Source: Xylanibacter ruminicola 23 (GTDB taxonomy: Bacteria > Bacteroidota > Bacteroidia > Bacteroidales > Bacteroidaceae). From it: a DNA stretch of 32,000 nt. How positions within the stretch are numbered: position 1 is the first letter of the stretch; every line of letters starts with the position of its first letter. The position numbers were made by a program, and so were the translations under genes. Location: contig NC_014033.1 in NCBI RefSeq assembly GCF_000025925.1, positions 120,001-152,000 on the forward strand, read 5' to 3'. The notes beneath the pieces were generated by a model. The model did no database searches and was not told where the DNA came from. It saw only the letters and a list, made by a program, of their open reading frames with translations. This document shows positions 433-17,080 of this stretch, one piece after another.

Positions 433-436
433 ATGT

Positions 437-1546: not shown

Positions 1547-2534
1547 AAAATATCATGTGAATTTAATTTTTCGCATGAAAAATGCCGATTATAGTATAGA
1601 AAAGGTTTTTAAACCTTTACAACCAATTTTTGGTAGGCATTTTGTTGTTGATGATTGTTATGTGCCTTATTATAAGGTTTCATTATGGTCAATTATTTCT
1701 AATATGTGGTTTGCTTTTTGTCATAGAAAGGATATAAACCATATTACGGGAGTAATGCATTATTGCGCTTTACTATTGCCGAAAAAGAATACCATTATCA
1801 CCATACATGACCTCAATCTTCCTGGAGCAGGACTCAAAAGGAAAATTCTGATGTGGCTGTTTGTGAAGTATCCTGTAAAAAGGGCTAACTATATAACATG
1901 TATAACAGAGGCAACAAAACGCGAACTTTTGGATGAATGTCCTAAAGCATCGGGTAAGGTGTCAGTTATATATAACCCAATATCTCCAGAATTCAAATAT
2001 AGCAAGAAAGAATTTGATGTAGAAAATCCAAGAATCCTGCATATTGGAACTCGTGCGAATAAGAATCTAGAGAGAGTTATTGAAGCTTTGAATGGTGTGA
2101 ATTGCTGTTTGGTTATTATTGGACAACTAAGTAATAATCAAAAGTTGCTGCTACAAGCCAATCATATTAATTATATAAACAAGTTCAGACTTACAGATCA
2201 GGAAATCTTAAGTGAATATAATTCTTGTGATATAGTGTCCTTTCCTTCTTTGTATGAAGGTTTTGGCATGCCAATCATTGAAGGGCAGGCTATAGGTAGG
2301 CCTGTTTTGACATCCCATAGGGCGCCGATGACAGAGATTTCTGGCGACGCTGTGATTTATGTAGATCCTGAGAGCGTGGATTCGATACGTCAGGGATTCC
2401 TGGAAATAATTAGAAACGAGAGCCTTAGGAAAAATATCGTGGCAAAAGGGCTGAATAATGTGAAGCGTTTCGATGCCGAAGTCATTGCAGAAAAGTATAT
2501 GGCATTGTACAATATAATTCTATCTAAAAAGTAG
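1539..2534 (+). CDS. GT-B glycosyltransferase (family 4/1)
   Basis: C-terminal motif FPSLYEGFGMPIIEGQAIGRPVLTS (EX7E-type). The ATG overlaps the upstream stop (ATGAATAA), suggesting translational coupling. Confidence 0.8.
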   Translation: MNKKYHVNLIFRMKNADYSIEKVFKPLQPIFGRHFVVDDCYVPYYKVSLWSIISNMWFAFCHRKDINHITGVMHYCALLLPKKNTIITIHDLNLPGAGLKRKILMWLFVKYPVKRANYITCITEATKRELLDECPKASGKVSVIYNPISPEFKYSKKEFDVENPRILHIGTRANKNLERVIEALNGVNCCLVIIGQLSNNQKLLLQANHINYINKFRLTDQEILSEYNSCDIVSFPSLYEGFGMPIIEGQAIGRPVLTSHRAPMTEISGDAVIYVDPESVDSIRQGFLEIIRNESLRKNIVAKGLNNVKRFDAEVIAEKYMALYNIILSKK

Positions 2535-2537
2535 CGC

Positions 2538-3620: not shown

Positions 3621-3631
3621 GTGTAAGGATT

Positions 3632-4735
3632 ATGATTATTTGTGTTTTGGCTACGGTCGCAACAGAGACTGGTGCATTAACAATATATAAACAATTTCTG
3701 AACGCTGTAGAGCGGTTCGGGGATGGGCATGAATGGCATATTTTTGTAGCTGATGGTATGCCTGTTCCCGTTATCAATCATGTCTTCTATCACGTATGCC
3801 ATACTAAAGGTTTGGATAGAATGAAGTTTGATTTCTATGGTTTTAATCATAAAGTCAAGAAGATTGGGATAAAGCCTGATGTCGTGTTTTCGCTCCAGAA
3901 TGGAAATGTGAGATGTAAAGCTGCAAGATATGTCGTTTATTTCCATCAGGCGCTTGCGCTTTCTAAATATAAGGTAAATATGAGAGATAAGTTTGCAAAG
4001 ACTTATCTGTTTTACCATTATTTTTATCCGTTGTATGTCAAATTGTTCCTGAATAAGCGGACCTACATTGCTGTTCAGACTAACCAAATAAAGAAAGGTT
4101 TCTCGAAGATATTTCGCTTTCCGTTAGAAAGGATAGGTGTGTTTTTTCCAGATACGGATAAAATCGACATTGAAAGCCTGGGGGTATATCGATATGAGGA
4201 AGGTACTTCCGATTTTATATATCCTGCAACTCCGTTTACATTTAAAGAGCATATATCTCTTGCGTATGCTATGAAAGAAGCGTATAGGCGGAGCCCTGAG
4301 ATGGCTAAGAAAATACGAATCCACTTTACCTTGGAAAAAGGAGAGATGGGTGAAATGGATAAGTATATCGTAGAGAATGGTTTAGAGCGAAACTTTGTAT
4401 ATCATGGAAGAATTCCTCACCAGCAGCTATTGTCGATGGTAAAGAGCTGCAATGGCTTGCTGTTCCCAAGTATGATAGAAACACTGGGTCTGCCTTTGCT
4501 CGAAGCCGCATCGTTAGGTGTGCCAGTTATTGCCAATGATTTGGAATATGTGCACGAGGTGCTGAGTGGGTACACAGGCGTAAAATATGTGGGAGTGCAT
4601 CAATATGATGATTGGGCGAAACATATTCTGTCTTGTTGCTCTCAACAGCAGTATACTCCTTATTCATTGCCAGAAGATAATTCTTGGGAACGATTAATGA
4701 AATTAATAACAGAAGGAATAATACAAAATAAATAA
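3632..4735 (+). CDS. GT-B glycosyltransferase (family 1/4)
   Basis: C-terminal LLFPSMIETLGLPLLEAASLGVPVIANDLEY motif; operon context. Confidence 0.75.
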   Translation: MIICVLATVATETGALTIYKQFLNAVERFGDGHEWHIFVADGMPVPVINHVFYHVCHTKGLDRMKFDFYGFNHKVKKIGIKPDVVFSLQNGNVRCKAARYVVYFHQALALSKYKVNMRDKFAKTYLFYHYFYPLYVKLFLNKRTYIAVQTNQIKKGFSKIFRFPLERIGVFFPDTDKIDIESLGVYRYEEGTSDFIYPATPFTFKEHISLAYAMKEAYRRSPEMAKKIRIHFTLEKGEMGEMDKYIVENGLERNFVYHGRIPHQQLLSMVKSCNGLLFPSMIETLGLPLLEAASLGVPVIANDLEYVHEVLSGYTGVKYVGVHQYDDWAKHILSCCSQQQYTPYSLPEDNSWERLMKLITEGIIQNK

Positions 4736-4739
4736 GACA

Positions 4740-5786
4740 ATGTCAGTATTTAAAGACAAAACACTCTTGATTACAGGAGGTACCGGCAGCTTCGGTAATG
4801 CTGTCCTGAATAGATTTCTCCGTACGGATATCGGAGAGATTCGTATTTTTAGTCGTGATGAAAAGAAACAAGACGATATGCGTCATGATTTTCAGGCACG
4901 TATGCCGGAGGTAGCTAACAAGATTAAATTCTATATTGGTGATGTGCGCAATAAGAGTACGCTGAAGTATGCTATGAAGGGGGTGGACTATGTGTTCCAT
5001 GCTGCAGCGCTGAAACAGGTGCCAAGTTGCGAATTCTTCCCGATGGAGGCTGTGAAGACCAATGTGATTGGTACAGACAATACACTGGATGCCGCTATCG
5101 ATGCTGGCGTGAAGTGTGTGATCTGCCTTTCTACCGATAAGGCGGCTTATCCAATTAATGCGATGGGTATCACCAAGGCTATTGAGGAGAAAATTGCTGT
5201 CGCCAAGAGCCGTTTGAGTGGCGACACCAAAATCTGTTGCACACGTTATGGAAATGTGATGTGCAGTCGTGGTTCGGTCATTCCTCTTTGGATTGACCAG
5301 ATTCGCAAAGGTAACCCTATCACACTTACAGAACCTAAGATGACGCGCTTCATTATGTCACTCGAAGAGGCTGTTGACCTCGTGCTATTTGCCTTTGAGA
5401 ATGGTAAGAATGGTGATATACTGGTTCAGAAAGCCCCAGCTTGTACTATCCAGACACAGGCTGAGGCCGTATGTGAGCTGTTTGGTGGTAAGAAAGAGGA
5501 GATAAAGGTGATTGGTATCCGCCATGGTGAGAAGATGTATGAGACGCTGCTTACCAAAGAGGAGGCTGCCAAGGCTATCGATATGGGTAATTTCTATGCG
5601 GTACCTGCCGACAACCGTGATTTGAACTACGATAAGTACTTCAAGGAGGGTGACGTGAAGCGTGCTACTATCGAGGAGTTTAATTCGGATAATACCCGCC
5701 GATTGAACTTGGAGGAAACAAAAGCTAAGATTGCATCACTGGAGTATATCCAGAATGAATTGAACGGTATTCCTAACCTCGTGTAA
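4740..5786 (+). CDS. fnlA: UDP-N-acetylglucosamine 4,6-dehydratase/5-epimerase (FnlA/CapE/WbjB type), step 1 of UDP-L-FucNAc synthesis
   Basis: N-terminus FKDKTLLITGGTGSFGNAVLNRFL, plus IRIFSRDEKKQ and TRYGNVMCSRGSVIPLW, are hallmarks of CapE/FnlA. It is followed by fnlB/fnlC homologues. Confidence 0.9.
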   Translation: MSVFKDKTLLITGGTGSFGNAVLNRFLRTDIGEIRIFSRDEKKQDDMRHDFQARMPEVANKIKFYIGDVRNKSTLKYAMKGVDYVFHAAALKQVPSCEFFPMEAVKTNVIGTDNTLDAAIDAGVKCVICLSTDKAAYPINAMGITKAIEEKIAVAKSRLSGDTKICCTRYGNVMCSRGSVIPLWIDQIRKGNPITLTEPKMTRFIMSLEEAVDLVLFAFENGKNGDILVQKAPACTIQTQAEAVCELFGGKKEEIKVIGIRHGEKMYETLLTKEEAAKAIDMGNFYAVPADNRDLNYDKYFKEGDVKRATIEEFNSDNTRRLNLEETKAKIASLEYIQNELNGIPNLV

Positions 5787-5797
5787 AAAAGAATATA

Positions 5798-6994
5798 TTG
5801 GTTACAGGTGCAAAAGGTTTTGTTGGTAAGAACCTTTGTGCTACCTTATATAATATAAAGGAAGGCAAGGACAGAACTCGACCTGACCTGAAGATTGATG
5901 AAATCTTTGAGTATGACATTGATTCGACATCAGAGGATCTGGACGAGTGGTGCCAGAAAGCAGACTTTGTTTTCAATCTGGCAGGTGTGAACAGGCCGAA
6001 AGAAACTTCGGAGTTTATGGAGGGTAACTTCGGTTTCGCTTCGACATTGCTGGATACGCTGAAGAAATATGGTAATACTTGTCCGGTGATGTTAAGTTCA
6101 TCACAACAGGCCTCGCTCACTGGTCGTTTTGGAAATAGCGAGTATGGTCGAAGTAAAAAGGCTGGCGAAGACTTGTTTCTGAAATATCAGGAGGAAACAG
6201 GTGCTAAAGTACTTGTCTATCGTTTCCCCAATCTGTTTGGCAAGTGGTGCCGACCAAACTATAATTCGGCGGTGGCTACATTCTGCAATAATATAGCTAA
6301 TGATTTGCCGATTCAAGTAAACGATCCTTCGGTAGAATTAGAGTTGCTGTATATTGATGATCTGGTAACAGAGATGCTGGATGCCTTAGAAGGTAAGGAG
6401 CACCGATGTGAGTTTGATGGATTAGGGGTCCTGCCGAAAATTGAAGGCAGATATTGCTATTGTCCTGTTACCCATCAAGAGACTTTGGGCAAGATTGTTG
6501 AACTGATTAATAGTTTTGCAGAACAGCCTAAGACCCTGATGATACCAGAAATACCCGAGAATAGCTTCGCCAAGAAGCTGTATAGTACTTATCTGAGCTA
6601 TCTCCCGAAAGAGAAAGTGGCCTTCCCTTTAAAAATGAATGTGGATGAGCGTGGTTCGTTTACAGAACTTATTCATACGTTGAATGCAGGGCAGGTGAGT
6701 ATTAATATCTCGAAGCCCGGTATTACTAAAGGTCAGCATTGGCATAACACCAAATGGGAATTCTTTATCGTGGTGGCTGGTCATGGCTTAATACAGGAGC
6801 GTAAGATTGGTTCTGATGAAGTGATAGAATTTGAGGTAAGCGGTGATAACATCCAATGTATTCACATGCTGCCAGGATATACTCATAATATCATTAATCT
6901 CAGTAATACTGAGAATCTGGTGACAGTGATGTATTGTAACGAGATATTTAATCCGAGTAAACCGGATACATATTTCGAGAAGGTAAAAGAGTAA
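5798..6994 (+). CDS. fnlB: FnlB/CapF/WbjC-type bifunctional reductase/epimerase (N-terminal SDR plus C-terminal cupin)
   Basis: LVTGAKGFVGKNL Rossmann motif at the N-terminus and a cupin-like C-terminus (GITKGQHWHNTKWEFFIVVAGHG). It lies between the fnlA and fnlC homologues. The only in-frame start is TTG at 5798 (ATA at 5795 is the alternative). Confidence 0.85.
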   Translation: MVTGAKGFVGKNLCATLYNIKEGKDRTRPDLKIDEIFEYDIDSTSEDLDEWCQKADFVFNLAGVNRPKETSEFMEGNFGFASTLLDTLKKYGNTCPVMLSSSQQASLTGRFGNSEYGRSKKAGEDLFLKYQEETGAKVLVYRFPNLFGKWCRPNYNSAVATFCNNIANDLPIQVNDPSVELELLYIDDLVTEMLDALEGKEHRCEFDGLGVLPKIEGRYCYCPVTHQETLGKIVELINSFAEQPKTLMIPEIPENSFAKKLYSTYLSYLPKEKVAFPLKMNVDERGSFTELIHTLNAGQVSINISKPGITKGQHWHNTKWEFFIVVAGHGLIQERKIGSDEVIEFEVSGDNIQCIHMLPGYTHNIINLSNTENLVTVMYCNEIFNPSKPDTYFEKVKE

Positions 6995-7005
6995 AAAGGT
7001 AAAAG

Positions 7006-8172
7006 ATGGAAATAAAGCATTTTAAGAATGATGGAAAGCTGAAACTGCTGATTATCGTGGGTACACGCCCTGAGATCATCCGATTGGCAGCTGTTATCAA
7101 TAAGTGTCGAAAGTATTTTGACTGCCTGTTAGCTCACACAGGTCAGAACTATGATTATAACCTGAATGGCGTGTTCTTCAAGGATTTGAAGCTGGCTGAT
7201 CCTGATATTTTTATGGAGGCTGTTGGTGATGACTTGGGAGCCACCATGGGTAACATCATTGACAAGAGCTACAAGGTGATGGTAGAAACAAAGCCTGATG
7301 CCGTATTGGTATTGGGCGATACCAATTCATGTCTTTCTGTGATTGGTGCCAAGCGTCTGCACATCCCCATCTTCCACATGGAGGCTGGTAACAGATGTAA
7401 GGATGAGTGCCTGCCAGAGGAGACAAACCGTCGCATCGTAGATATTATCAGCGATGTGAATATGGCTTATAGCGAGCATGCCCGCCGCTATTTGGCTGAT
7501 TGTGGTCTGCCTAAGGAGCGTACATACGTTACTGGATCGCCAATGGCTGAGGTGTTGCATCAGAATTTGGCAGAGATTGAGGCTAGCGATATTCATGCAA
7601 AGCTGGGTTTGGAAAAAGGAAAGTATATACTGTTGAGTGCCCATCGTGAGGAGAATATCGATACAGAGAAGAACTTTATGAGTCTCTTTACCGCTATCAA
7701 CAAGATGGCCGAAAAGTACGATATGCCAATCTTATATTCATGTCATCCACGTTCAAGGAAACGCTTGGAGGCTTCTGGCTTCCAACTCGATAAGCGTGTT
7801 ATTCAACATGAACCTCTCGGTTTTCATGATTACAACTGCTTGCAAATGAATGCTTTTGCGGTGGTTTCGGATTCGGGTACACTTCCTGAGGAGAGTAGCT
7901 TCTTTACCAGCGTAGGTCATCCTTTCCCCGCCATTTGTATTCGAACTTCGACAGAGCGCCCAGAGGCATTGGATAAGGCTTGCTTCTTCATCGCAGGAAT
8001 CGACGAAAAATCGTTGTTGCAGGCTGTAGATACTGCTGTAACGATGAATCAGAATGGTGACTATGGTATCCCTGTACCTGATTATATCGAGGAGAATGTC
8101 TCTACCAAGGTGGTGAAGATTATCCAATCCTATACAGGGATTGTTAATCGTATGGTATGGAGAAAGAGCTGA
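7006..8172 (+). CDS. fnlC: UDP-N-acetylglucosamine 2-epimerase, non-hydrolysing (FnlC/CapG/WbjD type)
   Basis: LLIIVGTRPEIIRLAAVI, VLVLGDTNS, HMEAGNRC and SDSGTLPEES motifs of WecB-family epimerases. Confidence 0.9.
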   Translation: MEIKHFKNDGKLKLLIIVGTRPEIIRLAAVINKCRKYFDCLLAHTGQNYDYNLNGVFFKDLKLADPDIFMEAVGDDLGATMGNIIDKSYKVMVETKPDAVLVLGDTNSCLSVIGAKRLHIPIFHMEAGNRCKDECLPEETNRRIVDIISDVNMAYSEHARRYLADCGLPKERTYVTGSPMAEVLHQNLAEIEASDIHAKLGLEKGKYILLSAHREENIDTEKNFMSLFTAINKMAEKYDMPILYSCHPRSRKRLEASGFQLDKRVIQHEPLGFHDYNCLQMNAFAVVSDSGTLPEESSFFTSVGHPFPAICIRTSTERPEALDKACFFIAGIDEKSLLQAVDTAVTMNQNGDYGIPVPDYIEENVSTKVVKIIQSYTGIVNRMVWRKS

Positions 8173-8216
8173 AATCCCTGCATTATAGCCGTCCCTTGTC
8201 AAGGGACTCTAAAGGT

Positions 8217-9431
8217 ATGGCGAAAGTTCTAATCTGTACAAATCATTTTTATCCAGAAACGTTCAGATGCAATGACGTTGCATTTGAACTGGCAAATCGT
8301 GGCTATGACGTGACGGTGCTGACAGCTATTCCCGATTATCCAAAAGGAAAATACTATGATGGGTATGGCATATTCCGTAAACGGCATGAAACGGTTAATG
8401 GTGTAAAGGTGATTCGTGGCTTTATCATACCTCGTGGTAATGGCGGTGGTATCAGACTGATGCTGAACTATCTGAGTTTTTTGATATCGTCCATATTTAT
8501 TAGTATCTTTCTTGGACTCTTTAGAAAGTATGATAAGGTACTGATACATGAAACATCGCCTGTTATGATAGGCATTCCTGCAGTGATTGTGTCGAAAATC
8601 CAGAAGTTACCACTTTATTTCTGGGTGTTGGACTTGTGGCCAGAGAGTTTGCAAGCTGCTGGAGGAGTTAATAATAAGTGCGTCCTGAATGCGTTTGAGA
8701 AACTGACGACATGGATTTATAAGAACTCCAAAAAAATATTGATAAGTTCGAAAGGTTTTGAGAAGTCTATTCTTGAAAAAGGTGATTTCAAGGATAAAAT
8801 CGTATATTTCCCCAATTGGGCTGATAGAGCTTTGGCTGTGAATGCAGGTTGCAAGATTCCAGAATTACCAAAGGGCTTTATAGTGATGTTTGCTGGTAAC
8901 ATTGGCGAGGCGCAGGACTTTGATCACATTATGGAAGCTGCGAACTATCTAAAAGATGAGCAGAGTATTCATTTCGTGTTTGTGGGGGATGGCAGAAAAC
9001 GTCCTTGGGTAGAAAAATACCGGGATGAACATAAACTTCAGAATACAGTGCATTGGTTAGGAAGACATCCGGTAGAGACAATGCCATTGTTCTTTAGACA
9101 GGCTGATGTGATGCTGATGACCTTAAAAGACGTGAGCATTTTCTCGTTGACAGCTCCGGCAAAACTCCAGGCCTATATGTCGGCAGGCAAGCCAATTTTG
9201 GCTATGATGAATGGCGAAGGACCAAGAATCATCGAAGAAGCTTCGTGTGGCTTTTCTGTTGCAGCTAGTGATTCTCGCGCTTTAGCTGATACAATTGTAA
9301 AACTCTCAAAAATGCCTAAAGACGAATTGCTGCAGTTAGGTCAGAATGGCAAGTCGTATCAAAATACTCATTTTGACTTGAATAAATCTATAGAACATCT
9401 AATAGAGCTATTGGCTTATGAAGATAATTAA
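8217..9431 (+). CDS. wbuB: WbuB-type GT4 glycosyltransferase (L-FucNAc transferase)
   Basis: MAKVLICTNHFYPETFRCNDVAFELANRGYDVTVLT, WVLDLWPESL and FAGNIGEAQDF. It follows fnlABC as in O-antigen loci. I prefer the ATG at 8217 over the listed 8157, which overlaps fnlC and adds a non-homologous leader. Confidence 0.85.
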   Translation: MAKVLICTNHFYPETFRCNDVAFELANRGYDVTVLTAIPDYPKGKYYDGYGIFRKRHETVNGVKVIRGFIIPRGNGGGIRLMLNYLSFLISSIFISIFLGLFRKYDKVLIHETSPVMIGIPAVIVSKIQKLPLYFWVLDLWPESLQAAGGVNNKCVLNAFEKLTTWIYKNSKKILISSKGFEKSILEKGDFKDKIVYFPNWADRALAVNAGCKIPELPKGFIVMFAGNIGEAQDFDHIMEAANYLKDEQSIHFVFVGDGRKRPWVEKYRDEHKLQNTVHWLGRHPVETMPLFFRQADVMLMTLKDVSIFSLTAPAKLQAYMSAGKPILAMMNGEGPRIIEEASCGFSVAASDSRALADTIVKLSKMPKDELLQLGQNGKSYQNTHFDLNKSIEHLIELLAYEDN

Positions 9432-9814
9432 TGAAGAGTTGTTGAACGAAGTATCGCAACAGGCAAAGGAAAGTTCCAAGGTTGAGGATGAATTATAACT
9501 TTCACGAAGATCTGAGTGATAAATGTCAGAGATTGTTGAATGCCTTAGAACCTGGCACCGTAATGCCCATTCATCATCATAAAGTGGATGAGATGTTTGT
9601 GATACTGAGAGGTTGCGTGCGGGTGACTATTCATAATGACAAGGGCGAGGTTATTCAATCGGTAGAACTTTCGCCTCGTAAGGGCAATTATGCTGTAAAT
9701 ATCAAAGCTGGAGAATGGCATTCTGTAGAAAGTCTTGAAGCTGGCACAATGATTATCGAAGTAAAAGAAGGTCCCTACATCCCCCATGAAATAGGTGGAA
9801 TGCTTAAAGTTTAG
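9418..9814 (+). pseudogene. wbuC: WbuC-family cupin, interrupted by a 1-nt insertion (frameshift at TT 9474-9475)
   Basis: The ATG at 9418 reads MKIINEELLNEVSQQAKES, then runs to a TAA at 9496. The +1 frame continues PRLRMNYNFHEDL...PIHHH...GEWHSVE to 9814. Removing one T from AGTTCC gives an uninterrupted 131-aa protein with the AKESPRLRMNYNFH junction I recall for WbuC. Length 397 = 3n+1. Confidence 0.7.
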
Positions 9815-9870
9815 ATGCGAGGAGGAAGGCATCAGGTGTTATAGTTTCTCAATTTTGCAAGTGTGAGTTT

Positions 9871-9914
9871 TCTGCTGTTTGTCGTAGTTAATGCCGACAA
9901 GCAGCAGATTTTTT
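9871..9914 (+). terminator. Rho-independent terminator closing the polysaccharide operon
   Basis: TCTGCTGTTTGTCG / CGACAAGCAGCAGA stem (one G-U pair) followed by TTTTTT. Confidence 0.6.
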
Positions 9915-9951
9915 GTATATAGAACTACCCTCACTGGGTATTTTTGTTTCT

Positions 9952-9991
9952 AGCGGGAGCTTCATGGGTGGAGCTCCCGCTGTTGTGTTTT
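9952..9991. terminator. Perfect 10-bp hairpin followed by a T-run; possible second or bidirectional terminator
   Basis: AGCGGGAGCT-(10 nt loop)-AGCTCCCGCT, then GTTGTGTTTTT. It lies directly 3' of the minus-strand small gene. Confidence 0.4.
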
Positions 9992-10334
9992 TACGGTTGG
10001 GTGACTAGGGCGAAGAGGGTTTCGCGGAAGCCTTGCAGGAAGATGGGGGGCTCGTTGGGGAAGGCTTCTTGGAAGTCGTGCTCCAGACTGTCGAGAACCT
10101 TGGCTATCAGTTGCCATTTCTGATAGGAACTGAGTCCGGGCTTCTGCAGGAAGTAACGGAGCACTACATAGCCCTGCCAAAGGGCTATTACACTGCTTTC
10201 GCTTTTAAAAAACGGTCCCGTGTCTTGCGACCAACATGGACATACTCGAGGTTACGCACAGTGGCCTGCGCGTCGTTGTCAATCATGCCTTTAATCAAGG
10301 CACGAAATGACGGTGTTGTCATCATTTTCTTCAT
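9991..10334 (-). pseudogene. Small hypothetical protein (~114 aa if repaired), split by a 1-nt deficit in a T6A4 homopolymer
   Basis: The minus-strand ATG at 10334 reads MKKMMTTPSFRALIKGMIDNDAQATVRNLEYVHVGRKTRDRFLKAKAV*. The -1 frame continues ...FFKSESSVIALWQGYVVLRYFLQKPGLSSYQKWQLIAKVLDSLEHDFQEAFPNEPPIFLQGFRETLFALVTQP* and ends at 9991. The span is 344 nt = 3n+2. One extra T or A in the run at plus-strand 10203-10212 restores a single ORF. Confidence 0.5.
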
Positions 10335-10410
10335 TGTATTTGTTAAATGTAGTTTAATTTGTGTCCCCCTAATGGAGCACAAACGGAGCGCAAAGTAACT
10401 GCTTTTTTCT

Positions 10411-10418
10411 TATATTTG
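10411..10418 (+). promoter_or_regulatory. Bacteroidetes-type -7 promoter box (TAnnTTTG) for the ATPase/primase genes
   Basis: TATATTTG lies 64 nt upstream of the ATG at 10482. I saw no clear -33 TTTG. Confidence 0.4.
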
Positions 10419-10481
10419 CGCCATCAGACCATAACTCAACTGTATTTTTTACATCATTTAATCATTAACATCTTAACAATT

Positions 10482-11645
10482 ATGCAGAACCTAAAAAATG
10501 TGGTGTTTAATCCAGATGTGGGGCATCTGATTCGTGGCGAGCTTTGGCTGGCAGGCATTTCCTGTGAGCAGGAACAACGACTGAAGCAGCTGGAGCAGCG
10601 ACGTATTACACCAATCACCAAGTTACGGCCGATGGAGTTCCTGTTCCGCTTGTCGGGTAAGCCCTGCTTTGCCCGTGGCGAACTAACAGGACTATCTGGT
10701 AAGGCCAAGAGCGGTAAGACATTTGTTTCGAGTATCTTGATGGCACTATGCTTTTGCAACCAGTTGCTCTCCGTAGAGCGGATCGAGCAGAAAAAGCTGC
10801 ACGTGTTGTGGTATGATACCGAGCAGAGCGAAGAGTCGACGCAAGACATCCTCAAGCATCGTATCATACCACTCACAGGCATACCCGAAGACCGGTTCCC
10901 GATGGAGCAGATGGATGTGTTTAACGTGCGTGGCGAGCCCATGAATGAACGCTTAGGCCTATTGGAGCTGTTGGTGATGCGCTATCAGCCCGACCTGGTG
11001 GTGCTGGATGGTATTCGCGACCTGGTGGCGGATATTAACGATGGCGTGGTGGCTCAGGACACCATCGAACGGTTGATGCGCCTGGCATCGGAAAACCACT
11101 GTGCCATCGTGTGCGTGCTGCACCAGAACAAGAGTCAGGAGGACAAAAACCTGAGTGGTTGGATTGGTACAGAACTGAAGAACAAGGCCTTCGAGGTGTA
11201 CGAGTGTTCCAAGAACTCGGAGCATATCTTTACGTGGGGACAAACGGATACACGCAAATACACCATCCCGACACCATTGCAGTTTGCTGTGAATGATGAC
11301 GGACTGCCGTATCAATGCAGCCACGAGCAGCTACTGGAGGCGCAGTTCCGCAGTCAGCAGAAGATGGTCGATAAATTGCAGGGCTCGAACAAACTGCCCG
11401 ATATGAATCCGAAGTACGTACACAAGGAAGGCCGTAAACATGTGTTCGACGTAAAACAGCTGTTTATCGATATCATGCAACCCGGACTGGTATATTCCGA
11501 GGAGCAACTGAAGCCGCAGATTTTCGATCTGACAGGCGCCATCAAACCTAAATTGCACGATGAGATACTGCAAAAGGCGGTTGAAGAAAACGTGATAGTG
11601 TGTGTAACGAATCCCTTTGGCAAAAAAGAATATGGCCTGCGGTGA
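10482..11645 (+). CDS. RecA-fold AAA ATPase (AAA_25 / RepA-DnaB-like helicase or loader)
   Basis: Walker A GKAKSGKT, Walker B LVVLDGIRDLV, and VCVLHQNKS (sensor-like). I chose the start MQNLKNV at 10482. The listed 10359 start would run through the promoter box and encodes an implausible leader. Confidence 0.8.
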   Translation: MQNLKNVVFNPDVGHLIRGELWLAGISCEQEQRLKQLEQRRITPITKLRPMEFLFRLSGKPCFARGELTGLSGKAKSGKTFVSSILMALCFCNQLLSVERIEQKKLHVLWYDTEQSEESTQDILKHRIIPLTGIPEDRFPMEQMDVFNVRGEPMNERLGLLELLVMRYQPDLVVLDGIRDLVADINDGVVAQDTIERLMRLASENHCAIVCVLHQNKSQEDKNLSGWIGTELKNKAFEVYECSKNSEHIFTWGQTDTRKYTIPTPLQFAVNDDGLPYQCSHEQLLEAQFRSQQKMVDKLQGSNKLPDMNPKYVHKEGRKHVFDVKQLFIDIMQPGLVYSEEQLKPQIFDLTGAIKPKLHDEILQKAVEENVIVCVTNPFGKKEYGLR

Positions 11646-11657
11646 AGCGCTAACGTT

Positions 11658-11702
11658 CCCCACATACTACATTCTCTCTCGTAGAGAGAATTACGTATGG
11701 GG
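11658..11702 (+). promoter_or_regulatory. Long imperfect hairpin between the ATPase and primase genes
   Basis: CCCCACATACTACATTCTCTCT-CGT-AGAGAGAATTACGTATGGGG. The inner stem of 9 bp is perfect and the outer CCCCA/TGGGG clamp pairs. No T-run follows. Confidence 0.4.
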
Positions 11703-11772
11703 ACTTAGCATTCACCTACGGAGGAAGTAAAAATGCAAAAATTGAAAAATGTAAGAATGTAAAAATAAAAAA

Positions 11773-12798
11773 ATGAAATACAATGAATTAGATCTTCAAA
11801 AAATCCGCGAGATGCCCATATTTGATGTATGCTCGAAATTGGGCATTACGCTGAAAGGAAAGGGCAAGATTACCAAACGTACCCTTTGCTGGCACCACAA
11901 CGACAAGCACCCATCAATGCATATCAACAAGGACAAGAACATCTACAAATGCTTTGTTTGTGGCGAGGGCGGCGATGTGATTAAGCTGGTGCAGGAATAC
12001 GAAAATTTAGATTTTCTAGAGGCTTGCGATTGGTTGGTAAAGGAGTTTGATGTGATATTGACAAACCATACTGTTCAAAACCATGTAAAAAGCAAGCCAT
12101 CTGCACCTCCACCACCTATTGTGGTGCCGTTGGATACAGCTTTGGTAACTAAATCCAAAGGTCTGGGTTCCGAGTTTTGCAAAGCAGTGGTGGCTACAGG
12201 CTACCTGAGCGAAGGACAGCTACGAAATGCAGCAGAACGCTATCAGCTAGGCTACTCAAAAGAGGGCGGCGTTATCTTCTGGGAGATTGACCAACAGCAG
12301 CAGGTGCATACCGGCAAGATTATGTATTACCAACCCGATTGCCATCGCGACAAAGAGCATCATCCTACATGGGTGCATACCATCCTGAAACAGCAATTAC
12401 CTGCTGAATACGAACTGCAGCATTGCCTTTTCGGACTGCACCTGCTAAATGAGCGAACAGAACGGGTGGCGATTGTGGAATCGGAGAAAACGGCGGTAAT
12501 TATGTCGGAGAAGTTTACGGATTTTGTATGGTTATCGTGTGGTGGTATGCAGATGCTGAAACCAGAGCTGTTAGCACCATTAGTACAGTATCGCATCATC
12601 ATCTTTCCAGATGCAGATCCTGAGGGCGAAGCATACAAGCAATGGACCGACATCGTAAATGAGGCACAGCGACTTTACCGGTTTCGTTATCCCATTCGCT
12701 TATCGCCATTGCTGGAACAGAAAACTACCAAAGAACAGAAAGAACGCAAAATTGATATAGTAGATTTTTTATTTGAACAAGATGAAAGCCATGTATAA
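11773..12798 (+). CDS. DnaG-like DNA primase (zf-CHC2 plus Toprim)
   Basis: Zinc finger CWHHNDKHPSMHINKDKNIYKCFVCGEGGDVIKLV. Toprim glutamate in VAIVESEKTAVIM and DxD in IIIFPDADPEGE. Confidence 0.8.
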   Translation: MKYNELDLQKIREMPIFDVCSKLGITLKGKGKITKRTLCWHHNDKHPSMHINKDKNIYKCFVCGEGGDVIKLVQEYENLDFLEACDWLVKEFDVILTNHTVQNHVKSKPSAPPPPIVVPLDTALVTKSKGLGSEFCKAVVATGYLSEGQLRNAAERYQLGYSKEGGVIFWEIDQQQQVHTGKIMYYQPDCHRDKEHHPTWVHTILKQQLPAEYELQHCLFGLHLLNERTERVAIVESEKTAVIMSEKFTDFVWLSCGGMQMLKPELLAPLVQYRIIIFPDADPEGEAYKQWTDIVNEAQRLYRFRYPIRLSPLLEQKTTKEQKERKIDIVDFLFEQDESHV

Positions 12799-12961
12799 AT
12801 CAGAACTCGCCAGATTAGCTGGCGTGTCACCCAGAACTTTTCAGCGCTATATGGTTTCTCGCCAAAACGTTCTTGCGACTATGGGCGTAAGTCTTCATGC
12901 TCATCTGCTGCCCCCTCAGGCTGTAAAATACATATGTGATGACTATGGCATAGAAATATGA
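12773..12961 (+). CDS. Small helix-turn-helix protein, DUF4248-like
   Basis: YKSELARLAGVSPRTFQRYM...LLPPQAVKYICDDYG resembles the DUF4248 pattern I recall from Bacteroidales. The true start may be the ATG at 12782 or 12791, which overlaps the primase stop. Confidence 0.6.
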   Translation: MNKMKAMYKSELARLAGVSPRTFQRYMVSRQNVLATMGVSLHAHLLPPQAVKYICDDYGIEI

Positions 12962-13024
12962 ACTTTTTTCAGCCAAATTCGGCCAAAAACAGACAGAAAC
13001 AGACAATGAGTTTTCGAAATGTTG

Positions 13025-13032
13025 TATCTTTG
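13025..13032 (+). promoter_or_regulatory. Bacteroidetes-type -7 box (TATCTTTG) upstream of the repeat array and the HU-like gene
   Basis: It matches TAnnTTTG exactly. A tandem AAACAGACAG/AAACAGACAA (12987-13006) covers the expected -33 region. It implies a ~245-nt leader containing the 22-bp repeats. Confidence 0.4.
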
Positions 13033-13073
13033 TAATCGGTAAGCGAGCCAAGTGATACCGAGTCATCTACGGG

Positions 13074-13206
13074 TCATTGAGACTATCTTTTCGAGTCATT
13101 AAGAGCATCTGAACACCTCATTGAGATAATCCCTTAGGGGGTATAAAGACTATCTGAACGACTCATTAAGACTATCCGGATAGCACGTTAAGATGGTCTC
13201 CTCGCC
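13074..13206. repeat. Six degenerate tandem repeats with a 22-bp period (iteron-like)
   Basis: Units start at 13074, 13096, 13118, 13141, 13163 and 13185: TCATTGAGACTATC.., TCATTAAGAGCATCTGAAC.., TCATTGAGATAATC.., (G)TATAAAGACTATCTGAAC.., TCATTAAGACTATC.., ACGTTAAGATGGTCTC... The core is TCATTRAGAnnATC. The region is non-coding. Confidence 0.7.
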
Positions 13207-13219
13207 AGCCATATACTTT

Positions 13220-13265
13220 CGCTCGGCCTTGCCGCTTTTACAAAGGCGTCAGCCGACTAAAAGAA
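13220..13265 (+). promoter_or_regulatory. Conserved leader element, copy A (upstream of the HU-like gene)
   Basis: CGCTCG-n2-CTTG-n1-CGCTTTTACAAAG-n11-CTAAAAGAA, ending 21 nt before the ATG at 13287. A homologous copy lies at 13947-13990. Confidence 0.55.
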
Positions 13266-13286
13266 ACCATTTAAAATTTTAAAAAC

Positions 13287-13868
13287 ATGAGTCAAAAATT
13301 TATCAAGTCGCAGAACAAGAACAGTTCAAGTCAGGCTTTCGGCAAGTACTTTGCACAGGCCGTGTACGACAACCACTTTGTGGGAACTGAAGAGTTGGCA
13401 GATTTCATCCAGCGCCAGGCTTCAGTGAAGAAGAGTGACATCAAAGCCGTACTTCAGGAGTTGGGTGAGGCCCTGAAGCACTTCTTCGAGATGGGCCAGA
13501 AAATCAAGCTCAACGGTATCGGCATCTTCAAGGTGGGTTCCTCCAGCATCGGTGTAACGAAGCTCGAGGATTGCGGTGCCCAGACCATCACCACTCGCCG
13601 TATTCTGTTCCAGCCCGAGACCAGCCGTGTGGTGGTTGGCCAGGAGAAGAAAGAAGACGGCAGTGTGAAGCAGAAGTACGTAAATGCCATCTCGCTGCTG
13701 AAGGACGTAACCTTCGAGGAAACTCACGACAACGCTATGAACGTAGAAACAGAACCATCGGGTTCGGGCTCATCGAATTCAGGTAACAGTGGTAATACCA
13801 GCGGAGGAGGCAATACCGGTGGCGCTGGAAATAACAATCCCCCCAGCAACGAGCCTATTGGTGATTAA
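13287..13868 (+). CDS. HU/IHF-family (Bacteroidales long type) DNA-binding protein with a Gly/Ser/Asn-rich tail
   Basis: LGEALKHFFEMGQKIKLNGIGIFKVG and RRILFQPE match an HU-like fold. The C-terminal tail is low-complexity: SGSGSSNSGNSGNTSGGGNTGGAGNNN. Confidence 0.85.
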   Translation: MSQKFIKSQNKNSSSQAFGKYFAQAVYDNHFVGTEELADFIQRQASVKKSDIKAVLQELGEALKHFFEMGQKIKLNGIGIFKVGSSSIGVTKLEDCGAQTITTRRILFQPETSRVVVGQEKKEDGSVKQKYVNAISLLKDVTFEETHDNAMNVETEPSGSGSSNSGNSGNTSGGGNTGGAGNNNPPSNEPIGD

Positions 13869-13946
13869 ACCGTAAATCATGGAAGATAGCAGATGTGTCC
13901 GGGGCAAAGCGATACCATCCCGGTGAGAACACTGAAATCAATTCTC

Positions 13947-13990
13947 CGCTCGAACTTGTTCGCTTTTACAAAGCAAAGCGGCTAAAAGAA
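13947..13990 (+). promoter_or_regulatory. Conserved leader element, copy B (upstream of the micro-protein and amidase)
   Basis: CGCTCG-n2-CTTG-n2-CGCTTTTACAAAG-n8-CTAAAAGAA, ending 19 nt before the ATG at 14010. It shares the same blocks, in the same order, as copy A. Confidence 0.55.
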
Positions 13991-14081
13991 TTCTCAATTT
14001 TCAATTGGTATGAACGCAGCCTGCGCATCTGCTTCTTCCTTTTTCATCCATAAACTTTATCCATTAAAAATCGTATTAAAA

Positions 14082-14192
14082 ATGAAAATCAAGTGGTCAA
14101 CAATTAAGCAAATTATCAAGATTGCTGCAACCATCATCACTACTGTAGCTGGTACACTGGCAGTTCAGAGCTGCGGCCCCAGTTTGTTCTAA
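14082..14192 (+). CDS. 36-aa membrane/signal-peptide-like micro-protein (holin-like; resembles the Bacteroidales 'smalltalk' micro-protein family, from memory)
   Basis: MKIKWSTIKQIIKIAATIITTVAGTLAVQSCGPSLF has a basic N-terminus, one hydrophobic helix and a lipobox-like VQSC six residues from the end. The alternative start at 14010 (60 aa) is positioned like the HU start relative to the leader element. The gene ends 15 nt before the amidase. Confidence 0.55.
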   Translation: MKIKWSTIKQIIKIAATIITTVAGTLAVQSCGPSLF

Positions 14193-14207
14193 TTAAACCC
14201 GTAAGTT

Positions 14208-14651
14208 ATGAATAAACAGTTGAAGCCTCTTAAGAAAGTGCTACTGCTTGTAGTGCATTGCACGGCTACCAAGTGTAACCGTCCATTCAGTGTTGAGAAC
14301 CTGATTGCCTGCGGCGAAGCCAAATATGGTCAGTGTTCCTACCATTATTATGTGCGCAGGGATGGTGAGGTAATACCGCTGCTACCAGAAACCGTGCAGG
14401 GGGTACATGCCAGGCATTACAACTACTGCTCGCTCGGCATTGTGTACGAGGGCGGATTGAACGAAAAAGGCCAGGCTTATGATACCCGCACCGAAGCTCA
14501 GAAACATGCGCTCTATGAACTATTGAAGGAACTGACAGGAGAATATCCCCAAGCCCGCATCGTAGGCCATTGCGAACTACCCCATGTAGCCAAGGACTGC
14601 CCCTGCTACCGGCCCAGCTGCGAGTACGCCAATCTCCAGCCCAAGTGCTGA
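14208..14651 (+). CDS. N-acetylmuramoyl-L-alanine amidase (Amidase_2 / T7-lysozyme / PGRP fold)
   Basis: VVHCTAT..., YHYYVRRDGEV, GVHARHYNYCSLGIVYEGG and GHCEL...KDCPC match the zinc-ligand pattern of the family. No signal peptide is present. Confidence 0.85.
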   Translation: MNKQLKPLKKVLLLVVHCTATKCNRPFSVENLIACGEAKYGQCSYHYYVRRDGEVIPLLPETVQGVHARHYNYCSLGIVYEGGLNEKGQAYDTRTEAQKHALYELLKELTGEYPQARIVGHCELPHVAKDCPCYRPSCEYANLQPKC

Positions 14652-14669
14652 AACCTAACGGTTAACACA

Positions 14670-14720
14670 CGCCCCTAAGAAGAACAACGCTCCTTAGGGG
14701 CGTTTTCATGTTTTTTTTGT
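14670..14720 (+). terminator. Rho-independent terminator closing the cassette
   Basis: CGCCCCTAAG-(13 nt)-CTTAGGGGCG perfect 10-bp stem followed by TTTTCATGTTTTTTTT. Confidence 0.7.
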
Positions 14721-14749
14721 CGTTTGACAAGAAGAATGTTGCGTTATAA

Positions 14750-14781
14750 TTTGTATATTTAAAAATTTAGTATTACCTTTG
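14750..14781 (+). promoter_or_regulatory. Bacteroidetes promoter (-33 TTTG, -7 TACCTTTG) for the tandem WecA-like genes
   Basis: TTTG at 14750-14753, a 20-nt spacer, TACCTTTG at 14774-14781, then the ATG at 14811. Confidence 0.5.
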
Positions 14782-14810
14782 CGGCGGATATTAGCAGTGG
14801 AATTTACTAA

Positions 14811-15926
14811 ATGTTATATTACTCAATCATTATACCGCTATTGTTGGCTACCTCTCTGGCACTTTTTATTATCCCACGTATTATTATGGTAAGTGTGAAA
14901 AAAGAACTGATGGGAGAGGAGACAGTAGTGCGTGACGGAAAAATCAGACGAAGGGTTCCCAGATTCGGGGGCGTTTCGCTTTTCCCTATTCTTGTTGTTA
15001 GTGTTGGACTGCCCTTGGCATGCACCTTCTTCCTGAACGACCAGTTCTCGACAAATGCAGAGAATAGCACCTATTTTGTGCAGTTTATGTTGATGATGAC
15101 TGGGCTGACAGCTATGTATATGGTTGGTGTGATGGACGATCTGGTAGGTGTATCGCTCAAGTCGAAACTCGCCATCGAGCTGTTGGCTGCGTTATTAATA
15201 CCTCTGTCGGGTTTGCGTATCGATCATCTGGACGGTTTGTTAGGCTTGTACGAGTTGTCGTCGTGGATTAGTATCCCGCTAACAGTGATAGCTGTGTTGT
15301 ATGTATCGAACACCGTATCGATGCTGGATGATATTGATGGCCTGGCATCGGGAATGGTTATGATTGTTTTTGGCGTGATGGCCGTATTATGCGCGATAGC
15401 CAATCAGTATCTGCTGTTGATGGTATGCGTAGCCATGGTAGGTTTGTTAGTACCATTCCTGTTCCGCAATGTGATGGGATGGCGAGTAGGGTGGCGTAAA
15501 CTCTTCTTTGGTGACACTGGCGGATTGACGATTGGCTATCTGATGGCATTCGTGGTGATTGCCGTGAGCCATATGAGTGGTAAGGAATTGCCAGTTGGGA
15601 TTGGAATGGCCTGCTTTGGTACACTGCTGATACCAATGTTTGACGTGATGCGTGTGGGTATCACCCGACTGGTAAACGGAAGAAATGTGTTTAAGAGTGG
15701 CGATAAAAATCATATACATCACCGACTGATGCTAGCAGGCTTGAAGCCTAGACAGGTATTGGTGGTGGTACTATTGATTACATTCGAGTTCATCTGCCTG
15801 AATATGTGGGGCGTTTGGAATGGATGGAATCTGTCGTTGCTGTTAGTGATTGATGTTTCGGCCTGGTTCCTGATGCAGGTTGTGATTATGTATTATAAAA
15901 ATCGTGCGGGGAGGGACAAATGCTGA
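14811..15926 (+). CDS. WecA/WbpL/MraY-family polyprenyl-phosphate HexNAc-1-phosphate transferase, paralogue 1
   Basis: About 10-11 TM segments. Motifs VMDDLVG, NTVSMLDDIDGLASG, FGDTGGLTIGY and DKNHIHHRL. Confidence 0.85.
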   Translation: MLYYSIIIPLLLATSLALFIIPRIIMVSVKKELMGEETVVRDGKIRRRVPRFGGVSLFPILVVSVGLPLACTFFLNDQFSTNAENSTYFVQFMLMMTGLTAMYMVGVMDDLVGVSLKSKLAIELLAALLIPLSGLRIDHLDGLLGLYELSSWISIPLTVIAVLYVSNTVSMLDDIDGLASGMVMIVFGVMAVLCAIANQYLLLMVCVAMVGLLVPFLFRNVMGWRVGWRKLFFGDTGGLTIGYLMAFVVIAVSHMSGKELPVGIGMACFGTLLIPMFDVMRVGITRLVNGRNVFKSGDKNHIHHRLMLAGLKPRQVLVVVLLITFEFICLNMWGVWNGWNLSLLLVIDVSAWFLMQVVIMYYKNRAGRDKC

Positions 15927-17080
15927 ATTATATATTCGATATATTAATTAAGGCCGGGGCTGATGTGGATGCCCTGAAGCTGACGTATGCTACGGCTGTG
16001 CCTTTCGTGCTGTCGGCTTTGCTGGGCTGGTTGTTCGTGCCCAGAGTGCTGCTGATTAGCCGAAAGAAGAAGCTGTATGATATTCCTGATGCCCGAAAGG
16101 TGCATAAACAGCCCATACCTCGCTTGGGTGGTATTACCTTCTTCCCGGTACTGCTGATGAGTTTCTGCTTGTCGATTGGTATCTGGATGCTAATGCATCT
16201 GTATGGTGGCTTTACGCAAGTGTATATTCTGATAGCGCGCTTTATCATGTTGGCTGTGGGTATGATGGTGCTTTACCTGACGGGTGTGGCTGATGATTTG
16301 ATAGGTGTTTCGTATAAGGATAAGTTTGTGGTGCAGATATTATGCGCTTTGCTGTTCCCCTTATCGGGCTTGTGGATACATGATTTGTCGGGCTTGTTCT
16401 GGCTGCACGAGATACCTGCTTGGATAGGTATGCCGCTTACCGTATTCCTGGTGGTTTATATTACCAATGCCATTAACCTGATAGATGGCGTGGATGGACT
16501 GGCATCGGGTTTATGCTCTATTTCGCTCTTTACTTTGGGTATGGCTGCTGCCATTAAAACGCAATATCTGTTCTGCATGATTTCGTTTAGTATGCTGGGC
16601 GTGCTGCTACCTTTCTGGTTCTATAATGTGTTTGGCAATGCCGAAAAAGGCAAGAAGATATTTATGGGTGATACGGGTAGCTTAACGTTGGGCTATCTGC
16701 TGAGTTTCCTATTGGTATATATGGCCAGTCTGGATAAGATGGGATTCCCTAGAGGTATGTTGCTGATGGGCTTCTCGACTATGATTATCCCGTTGATGGA
16801 TATTCCGCGTGTGATGATGGCTAGAGTGCGTGAGGGTAGAAATCCGTTTACGCCTGATAAGAATCATATCCACCATAAGCTGATGCGAACAGGTATGAAG
16901 CCATTCTGGACAATGGTTACGCTTTTAGTTGTAACCGTTTTCTTGATTGCCTTTACCGTAATTACAGTGAAGTTAGAGGTGGATAAAACGCTGATTCTGG
17001 TGGTTGATATCTTGTTAGGTGTAATGCTTCATCTGATTATCGATCACTTTATAGCGAAGAAAGAAAAGCAAAAGAAATAA
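15920..17080 (+). CDS. WecA/WbpL/MraY-family polyprenyl-phosphate HexNAc-1-phosphate transferase, paralogue 2
   Basis: Motifs VADDLIG, NAINLIDGVDGLASG, MGDTGSLTLGY and DKNHIHHKL. Its ATG overlaps the stop of paralogue 1 (ATGCTGA). Confidence 0.85.
   Translation: MLNYIFDILIKAGADVDALKLTYATAVPFVLSALLGWLFVPRVLLISRKKKLYDIPDARKVHKQPIPRLGGITFFPVLLMSFCLSIGIWMLMHLYGGFTQVYILIARFIMLAVGMMVLYLTGVADDLIGVSYKDKFVVQILCALLFPLSGLWIHDLSGLFWLHEIPAWIGMPLTVFLVVYITNAINLIDGVDGLASGLCSISLFTLGMAAAIKTQYLFCMISFSMLGVLLPFWFYNVFGNAEKGKKIFMGDTGSLTLGYLLSFLLVYMASLDKMGFPRGMLLMGFSTMIIPLMDIPRVMMARVREGRNPFTPDKNHIHHKLMRTGMKPFWTMVTLLVVTVFLIAFTVITVKLEVDKTLILVVDILLGVMLHLIIDHFIAKKEKQKK

Follow-up and report, generated by a model that had tools for sequence, protein, structure and literature searches.

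A 4.8-kb block of six co-oriented genes on the forward strand (positions 9951-14720) lies in a 32,000-nucleotide stretch of DNA from Xylanibacter ruminicola 23 (contig NC_014033.1, positions 120,001 to 152,000; hereafter the window), between wbuC, which ends at 9814, and two wecA-like GT4 genes (14811-17080). The host is a rumen Prevotella-like bacterium, and the window carries one copy of the block. The block runs in the order helicase and primase, DUF4248-type helix-turn-helix (HTH) protein, repeat array, HU-HIG protein, 'smalltalk' peptide and T7-lysozyme-type amidase. It is very probably the form taken in Prevotellaceae by a recurrent Bacteroidales cassette that has no integrase, whose modules derive from mobile elements and which is now fixed in the chromosome where polysaccharide genes border on variable islets of defence or toxin-antitoxin genes. 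The best explanation overall, which we put forward tentatively, is that the cassette is a domesticated module of mobile-element origin that joins a replication origin to a lysis function and is probably involved in phage conflict.

The cassette recurs with its gene order intact. When a primase profile was run against one genome per GTDB species, 41 cassette-type loci and 39 other loci were recovered, the closest named relative of the window being a metagenome-assembled genome (MAG) of X. ruminicola (locus L006). An AAA_25 gene stands directly before the primase gene in 38 of the 41 cassette-type loci, from Prevotellaceae and other Bacteroidales, and in most of these the pair is followed in turn by a gene for HTH56 or a true DUF4248 protein and by those for HU-HIG, smalltalk and amidase. 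The arrangement is kept across dozens of species at 35-65% protein identity. A second survey, made in JGI metagenomes and anchored on the amidase, found smalltalk immediately ahead of the amidase in 70 of 72 loci, HU-HIG before smalltalk in 37 of 37, and the ATPase-primase pair further upstream in 24 of the 26 loci having enough sequence. Two amidase homologues picked solely for their long contigs both lay in full cassettes.

The replication-type slot is filled in more than one way. Human-gut contigs (L263, L315) carry a fused Toprim_2-DnaB_C/AAA_25 primase-helicase, followed by DUF4248, HU-HIG, smalltalk and amidase, and in the locus tags of Bacteroides thetaiotaomicron amidase genes adjoin those for HU and DUF3987 (PMC10434189). 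Three non-homologous primase-helicase forms are therefore found in the same position: the split AAA_25 and zinc ribbon-DUF6371 pair, the fused Toprim_2-DnaB_C protein, and DUF3987. That unrelated forms share one slot is our main argument that priming and unwinding of DNA belong to the role of the block.

A first-pass annotation, made from the letters of the window, had listed an ATPase, a primase, an HTH protein, a 22-bp array, an HU-like protein, a 36-aa peptide and an amidase. All of these were confirmed at approximately the positions it gave (Table 1).

Table 1. Features of the cassette and its borders. Positions are those of the window; dN/dS was computed against one relative, L006, whose primase is 91% identical.
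Feature	Position	Strand	dN/dS	Remarks
Terminator-like hairpin after wbuC	9872-9914	+		13-bp stem, 10-nt loop, T run; read directly; outside the conserved block
Strong GC-rich hairpin, left border of the conserved block	9951-9982	+		14-bp stem and T run
Divergent small open reading frame (ORF), 57 aa	9991-10164	-	0.40	No family match
Divergent small ORF, 48 aa from ATG, 64 aa from TTG at 10382	10188-10334	-		Always paired with the 57-aa ORF
Bacteroidetes -7-type box TATATTTG	10411-10418	+		64 nt ahead of the ATPase start codon; suggestive by position only
AAA_25 RecA-fold ATPase, putative hexameric helicase or initiator	10482-11645	+	0.07	PF13481 E 9e-10; Walker A GKAKSGKT in translation
AT-rich 8-bp tandem repeat GTAAAAAT, ~6 copies	11727-11775			Ends at the primase start codon
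DnaG-type primase, CHC2 zinc ribbon and DUF6371	11773-12798	+	0.08	Zn_ribbon_DnaG E 2e-18; DUF6371 E 2e-44
Helix-turn-helix protein, 56 aa, shortened remote DUF4248 relative	12791-12961	+	0.125	Profile-profile comparison
Box TATCTTTG (TAnnTTTG type)	13025-13032	+		Upstream of the repeat array and the HU-HIG gene
Iteron-like array of TCATTRAGANNATC	13068-13200			Four exact and about two degenerate copies, spacing 22 to 23 bp
HU-HIG DNA-binding family protein, glycine-rich-tail subclade	13287-13868	+	0.08	PF18291 E 3e-17, 63.4 bits vs threshold 26.2; TIGR01201
'Smalltalk'-type membrane peptide, 36 aa	14082-14192	+	0.165	NF033879 best NCBIfam match
Signal-less T7-lysozyme-type N-acetylmuramoyl-L-alanine amidase	14208-14651	+	0.06	Amidase_2 PF01510 E 6e-17; phrog_822 lysis amidase E 7e-36
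Terminator-like hairpin and T run, right end of the block	14686-14718	+		Hairpin itself 14686-14704

The first two genes are of replication type. The ATPase, which has more than 3600 protein clusters in the database, gives a weak Twinkle match. Its AlphaFold model is mediocre (pLDDT 63) and backs only a general assignment to the RecA-fold hexameric ATPases, the fold matching KaiC, RadA and Twinkle; a C-terminal helix/beta-hairpin domain is confidently modelled. In the primase, the Toprim-like motifs VESEK and FPDxD are invariant across the alignment, and PHROGs groups the protein with phage primases. The zinc ribbon, the Toprim-type primase and the RecA-fold hexameric helicase fold recall gp4 of phage T7, as the T7-lysozyme fold of the amidase, with the same catalytic residues, recalls gp3.5. 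Unlike in T7, two separate genes encode the primase and the helicase, and their order is inverted; the host is a cell, in which the amidase has no T7 RNA polymerase to act on as a regulator, and virion genes are absent.

The description of the small HTH protein as DUF4248-like holds only at the level of profiles. It has no match to Pfam DUF4248 (PF14053) at E 0.01 and BLASTP against a DUF4248 protein found nothing, but hhalign relates it to the DUF4248 proteins at the equivalent position in sister cassettes (94.8%, E 5e-8), where true DUF4248 proteins occupy the HTH slot. It is also the fastest-evolving protein of the block, with 71% identity to L006 compared with 91-93% for its neighbours.

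Beyond the HTH gene, exact copies of TCATTRAGANNATC start at 13074, 13096, 13118 and 13163 and occur nowhere else in the 32 kb. The array is followed by an A/T-rich tract ahead of the HU-HIG start and has the form expected of an iteron origin: at least three direct repeats of about 17-22 bp, with helical-phase spacing, beside A/T-rich DNA and replication genes. Periodic repeats of 18-25 bp lie upstream of HU-HIG in more than half of the sister cassettes, well above shuffled controls. Their sequences vary from cassette to cassette, and short-period A/T-rich repeats often follow, by the HU-HIG start. The combination of a fast-evolving HTH protein and differing repeats fits a diverging pair of protein and site specificities, as in iteron origins or phage immunity regions.

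The other half of the cassette ends in the amidase, whose best structure matches are to T7 lysozyme (PDB 1aro and 1lba). Its catalytic set is intact, with H17, Y45, H121, K129 and C131, comprising the zinc ligands and the catalytic Tyr and Lys, invariant across cassette amidases. The gene for this signal-less murein hydrolase follows that for the membrane peptide directly, after a gap of 15 nt. Holin-endolysin cassettes of Bacteroidales phages have a similar layout, in which the gene for a small membrane protein immediately precedes that for a signal-less amidase belonging to the same family: in viral contigs with a related amidase, an ordinary holin of 70-100 aa with two transmembrane (TM) segments lies just upstream in about 70 of 80, and HU-HIG and smalltalk are absent there. 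Because phage amidases of the same type have holins directly upstream, smalltalk can be said to occupy the holin slot. The cassette partner differs from the phage holins in being a single-helix peptide of 30-40 aa that ends at or just past an invariant Cys. In an alignment of 72 distinct homologues it has a Lys-rich N-terminus, a single hydrophobic helix and an invariant VQSC, followed by 0-7 residues; the NF033879 match of the window peptide scores 18.6 bits (E 1e-3) against a curated cut-off of 24.7 bits. Smalltalk peptides from the human gut finish with ...GAFSANAMNL and lack the Cys found in every member of the Prevotellaceae set (L263 5204-5317, L265 7899-7994, L315 4093-4188), and lipoprotein-type processing therefore cannot be a common property of the family.

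Burroughs et al. (2017) defined the HU-HIG clade and proposed for it a role in biological conflict, whilst finding conserved operonic linkage almost entirely lacking (PMC5499826). The window protein belongs to the glycine-rich-tail subclade, and its constant linkage to smalltalk and amidase in the amidase-anchored loci contradicts the latter statement. Some sister cassettes have a longer HU-HIG protein (258-284 aa), fused to CHB_HEX_C_1/Fn3_assoc Ig-like domains and without the glycine-rich tail (L086 11563-12339; L101 11634-12488; L102 11413-12225).

An origin activity, a lytic step, a trigger and a selective benefit may be inferred from this content and joined into a 'replicate-and-lyse' mechanism, which is possible but doubtful. 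The small HTH protein, the winged-helix-like tail of the ATPase, or both, would recognise the 22-bp iterons, with HU-HIG bending the DNA. The RecA-fold ATPase and the DnaG-type primase could then open and prime a putative local origin. The 36-aa membrane peptide would take a holin-like role, giving the cytoplasmic amidase access to peptidoglycan. Such a conditional module might be kept because it excludes superinfection by related temperate phages or aborts infection by them.

Several observations weigh against this mechanism and the coupled module that it assumes, and some of them favour what we regard as the main rival, namely that two unrelated and uncoupled neighbours adjoin: a decaying remnant of mobile-element replication genes, and an independent envelope or nucleoid module of HU-HIG, smalltalk and amidase. 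A common sister lineage (L343-345) has a 721-bp deletion, corresponding to window 12352-13072, that removes the catalytic C-terminal half of the primase, the HTH gene and a promoter box, and in L343 ends precisely at the first iteron copy; HU-HIG, smalltalk and amidase are intact. The replication half is thus dispensable in that lineage. Two loci (L142, L153) carry HU, smalltalk and amidase without the helicase-primase pair, and five others (L031-033, L038, L039) carry the pair without the amidase half, so that, with the deletion, the replication and lysis halves are seen to be separable. Instead of an origin, the repeats may form a set of operators within a 5' leader that is long and structured (z -2.9). 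Smalltalk is without the charged C-terminal tail typical of holins and in this lineage looks like a lipoprotein signal peptide. PADLOC 2.0 gave no defence model, the only match being that of the zinc ribbon to DRT-associated models, and vertical inheritance of the block is deduced from few comparisons. Nevertheless, the reading as two neighbours seems rather unlikely, given the three primase-helicase architectures upstream of the same DUF4248-HU-smalltalk-amidase set, the presence of the pair in nearly all amidase-anchored loci with sufficient sequence, and the strong purifying selection on the primase where it is intact.

Selection also bears on whether the block is the inert, functionless debris of a prophage or transposon. 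The mobile-element ancestry of its modules and the deletions in one lineage would suit such a view. However, dN/dS is 0.06-0.17 in all six genes, including that for the 36-aa peptide, the catalytic residues are intact, and gene order is conserved over large protein distances. Debris is already largely refuted and scarcely tenable; plain prophage debris in particular was rejected on dN/dS and synteny. The flanking wecA paralogues and the DUF4954 gene have dN/dS of 0.06-0.09 in the same comparison, and their dS is in the same range as that of the block. The right flank (two wecA genes, DUF4954, hflX, nagB and GH97) is common to the window, L006 and L343, whereas the left flank differs in all three. 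Since homology resumes at 9951 beside a variable left flank and a common right flank, the block is, by these alignments, a selected resident on the stable side of a region whose sugar genes can be exchanged. Its GC content of 0.45-0.53 is like that of the core genome to the right (0.45-0.56) and unlike that of the sugar genes to the left.

The absence of an integrase sets the cassette apart from most elements with related genes. The view that it is not an ordinary prophage or integrative and conjugative element was borne out, and it is not a mobilizable transposon either: integrase and relaxase hidden Markov models (HMMs) had zero matches across the 32-kb window, and an integrase lies within 10 kb in 1 of the 41 cassette-type loci. 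Close homologues are thus not contiguous with integrase or virion genes, and the refuting condition that the first annotation had set does not refute it. Pfam and PHROG scans of all block genes found no capsid, terminase, portal or tail gene, and the neighbours are sugar, defence or housekeeping genes.

The 39 other loci of the primase survey are of a different kind. Only their DUF6371 half matches, at 37% identity, the copies are often identical across genera, and about 35 of them carry integrase and Mob genes in integrase-AAA ATPase-DUF6371-Mob arrays; no such combination of integrase and Mob adjoins the pair in the cassette-type loci or in the window. Judged by sequence, these loci are Tn4555-like mobilizable transposons and small Bacteroides plasmids, some with cfxA; an AAA ATPase-DUF6371-Mob-cfxA arrangement was seen in plasmids and mobilizable transposons alike. 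The cassette shares with Tn4555/NBU transposons and small Bacteroides plasmids an ATPase gene directly before a DUF6371 Toprim-type gene, the DUF6371 parts being 37-44% identical. Elements of the Tn4555/NBU type, in contrast, have integrase and Mob, often cfxA, are near-identical across genera, and are without the zinc ribbon, HU, smalltalk and amidase; between their ATPase and the AAA_25 protein the similarity is at best marginal (E 0.39). Virtually identical copies of one integrase-AAA ATPase-DUF6371-Mob element occur in Segatella, Porphyromonas, Phocaeicola and Parabacteroides (L062-L084, L191-L202; e.g. L063 5836-12500), and also in MAGs that bear the label Selenomonas or Lachnospiraceae. 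This element has the module of the cfxA plasmids, and IMG/VR lists copies as viral. It is a Tn4555-like mobilizable transposon that has spread very recently.

IMG/VR holds no close relative of the cassette primase. Temperate phage-like contigs of rumen Bacteroidales listed there do have AAA_25 followed by a full-length zinc ribbon/DUF6371 primase, about 30% identical, and these pairs lie 4-7 kb from an integrase. One contig (L186) carries the pair with an integrase, a repressor-like gene, HNH, HU-HIG and a tail gene. The phage-like contigs differ from the cassette in that the pair is without adjoining DUF4248/HTH56, smalltalk or cassette-type amidase.

The cassette might instead be a non-autonomous mobile element or phage satellite, with its own origin and with excision, packaging or transfer supplied by a helper. 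Primase-helicase genes with adjacent iterons resemble the replication modules of the P4 and PICI satellites, and as in P4 alpha/ori and SaPI pri-rep/ori the primase and helicase genes of the cassette are followed by short direct repeats and A/T-rich DNA, here a putative origin. Relatives of the helicase-primase pair occur in integrase-bearing viral contigs, and IMG/VR classes a few cassette-bearing contigs as viral. However, 40 of 41 loci are without an integrase, and the integrases, attachment sites and helper-exploitation genes of P4 and SaPI satellites have no counterpart found for the cassette, nor are capsid-redirecting or packaging genes present. Repeat searches, which covered only 12950-13300, showed no matching direct repeats for the borders at 9951 and 14720 and no attachment-site-like flanking repeats. 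The chromosomal position and right flank common to the window, L006 and L343, and a dS equal to that of the neighbours, also speak for residence, and a satellite is improbable. The earlier suggestion of a domesticated replicon or satellite thus survives in its first half: a domesticated module fits best, given distant relatives that are phage- or Tn4555-like and the recurrent iteron-like arrays, whilst a satellite is disfavoured.

The genes around the cassette are of two main sorts. The suggestion that similar sets recur as a syntenic block beside polysaccharide genes is supported, since polysaccharide genes lie within 10 kb in 7 of 8 Pfam-annotated contexts and glycosyltransferases lead the counts of flanking families. 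In an aggregated Pfam scan of the nearest flanking ORFs, Glycos_transf_4 was the commonest downstream family, with 9 of 103 ORFs (WecA-like; rumen metagenome loci), followed by AAA_21/AAA_15, HipA, NTP_transf_5, DegT, Bac_transf and Poly_export. Detection of polysaccharide genes locus by locus, with seed proteins and local HMMs, was too insensitive, and its count of 12 of 41 loci is a lower bound. Defence or toxin-antitoxin genes occur in 6 of the 8 contexts, the families seen being AAA_15/21, GmrSD_N, putAbiC, PIN-TPR-GreABC, SLFN_AlbA_2, SocA_Panacea, HigBA-like and TIR. Some cassettes sit in dense defence or toxin-antitoxin islets (L086 1-21167; L102 13693-20650; L092 13340-17702), with genes including GmrSD_N, HATPase_c_3, AAA_15/21, DpnII-MboI, Trypsin, putAbiC, PIN-TPR-GreABC, a 1544-aa TIR protein, DUF3800, SocA_Panacea and PIN_3. 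The neighbours give indirect backing to the earlier idea of an abortive-infection system, although no known defence model matches the block.

The adjacency to polysaccharide genes, which is noted in the literature as well as in the annotated contexts, has a possible regulatory meaning: HU-HIG and the HTH protein could shape the local DNA and control transcription of the adjacent polysaccharide genes, as the HU protein PG0121 of Porphyromonas gingivalis regulates the capsule operon (PMC3969353). Beyond adjacency and this precedent there is little to favour a capsule regulator, which was also among the earlier proposals. The orientation of the cassette relative to the sugar operons is inconsistent among loci, the neighbouring sugar genes being convergent, or beyond defence genes, in most relatives; a terminator and a separate promoter box stand between the block and the wecA genes; only two of the ten B. 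thetaiotaomicron copies are linked to capsular polysaccharide (CPS) loci (PMC1892571); and the helicase, primase and amidase would be left unexplained. Regulation of this kind is decidedly improbable.

Another link to the neighbours could be through peptidoglycan recycling, the cytoplasmic amidase acting like AmpD on anhydro-muropeptides or precursors and so influencing an undecaprenyl-phosphate pool shared with capsule synthesis. This would agree with the lack of a signal peptide, with a weak AmpD match (E 1.5e-6) and with wecA-type transferases as the commonest downstream neighbour. However, the amidase reaches 27.7 bits for AmpD, where the cut-off is 143, and matches the phage lysis amidase family far better; multi-copy, island-located genes are also unlike a core recycling enzyme. 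Recycling is very unlikely.

A more far-reaching reading keeps the origin and the lysis but gives them another outcome. The cassette could in theory act as an immobile chromosomal origin, triggered by phage or stress, that over-replicates the adjacent capsule and defence islands in situ before lysis; there is a small chance of this. By analogy with lateral transduction, the over-replicated loci might then be fed into helper-phage particles or released as free DNA, which is an equally slight prospect. If true, over-replication would explain why capsule loci and defence islets are hot spots of exchange in Bacteroidales, and why co-resident copies have diversified HTH, HU-HIG and iteron specificities.

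Blocks of this kind have been noticed before. Xu et al. (2007) reported groups of two to five genes, headed by a homologue of T7 lysozyme and lying in or beside CPS loci, which they called putative phages: four in Parabacteroides distasonis, five in B. vulgatus, all CPS-linked, ten in B. thetaiotaomicron, two of them CPS-linked, and one in each B. fragilis strain (PMC1892571). A 2022 study repeated the description for 26 P. distasonis genomes (PMC9409006). The window block is like those of Xu et al. in having a T7-lysozyme homologue with a short run of co-oriented genes of unknown function, next to polysaccharide genes and with virion genes not described. It is unlike them in being resolved gene by gene, in its Prevotellaceae host and in its DnaG/DUF6371-type primase, neither earlier paper (PMC1892571, PMC9409006) having given a gene-by-gene architecture or a mechanism. 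In the literature, no paper was found in which the block, DUF6371 or smalltalk is given a function. The block is a better-resolved version of a gene set that was noticed in 2007 as 'phage' and is still uncharacterised in function; the proposal that it is an uncharacterised system stands for function, though T7-lysozyme 'phage' blocks at CPS loci had been seen by Xu et al. (PMC1892571).

Nothing in the genomes of gut and rumen Bacteroidales is more variable, or more decisive for their ecology, than the capsule loci and defence islands, and the cassette lies at the border of these in many species. Definition of its architecture ties the expansion of HU-HIG proteins and the 'smalltalk' peptides to a concrete gene context and turns a vague annotation into testable hypotheses of origin activity, lysis, phage exclusion and locus mobilisation, for which tractable homologues are available in B. 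thetaiotaomicron.

The left border of the cassette is sharp. Homology to both L006 and L343 begins exactly at 9951, so the conserved block starts there and not at 9991 as first annotated. Upstream in the window lie fnlABC, wbuB and wbuC, and the sugar-gene region to the left of the block is unlike in the three close relatives (window 9814-9951; L343 881-8614; L006 left of 8193). The polysaccharide genes at window 1-9814 have a much lower GC content, 0.33-0.45, consistent with horizontal replacement of the region. In L343, a 7.6-kb segment encoding unknown proteins and an AraC-type regulator is inserted precisely between the two left-hand terminator hairpins; the match to window 9814-9949 is at 881-1019 in L343, 7.6 kb distant from the cassette. 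The site between these hairpins looks like a precise hot spot of recombination or insertion. On the other side of the block, the two WecA-like GT4 initiating transferases are tandem and overlapping and about 35% identical to one another.

Signals for expression of the block are of mixed quality. The TAnnTTTG boxes reported earlier are present at 10411, 13025 and 14774, but with 22 found and 21 expected the motif is not above chance in the window. A sigma-70 promoter scan was uninformative (6 found, 8.6 expected), Bacteroidetes promoters differing from the sigma-70 model, and an Rfam scan of 9400-15000 gave no credible match. The leaders of HU-HIG and smalltalk fold better than shuffled sequences (z -2.9 and -3.4). 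A 12-mer, GCTTTTACAAAG, followed by a ...CTAAAAGAA motif, is present once before HU-HIG (13234-13245) and once before smalltalk (13962-13973) and nowhere else in the window; it is not conserved outside close relatives. The duplicated GCTTTTACAAAG may be a shared regulatory site.

The left end of the block also holds the two divergent ORFs, which had been annotated as one frameshifted gene. A frameshifted pseudogene was rejected, since about ten relatives keep the two ORFs together in this layout, the 57-aa ORF being found in L006, L008, L009, L011, L040, L103, L104, L108, L109 and L138. Neither ORF belongs to a family, and they are unrelated to the small divergent genes of L101. In L343, a 131-bp deletion has removed window 10332-10462. 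Compared with L006, the 48-aa ORF has five amino-acid changes and zero synonymous ones (window 10188-10481), and the intergenic DNA beside it has 90% identity, whereas the other intergenic regions that were compared have 59-72%. Such conservation at the nucleotide level across 10188-10481 suggests a regulatory element or RNA.

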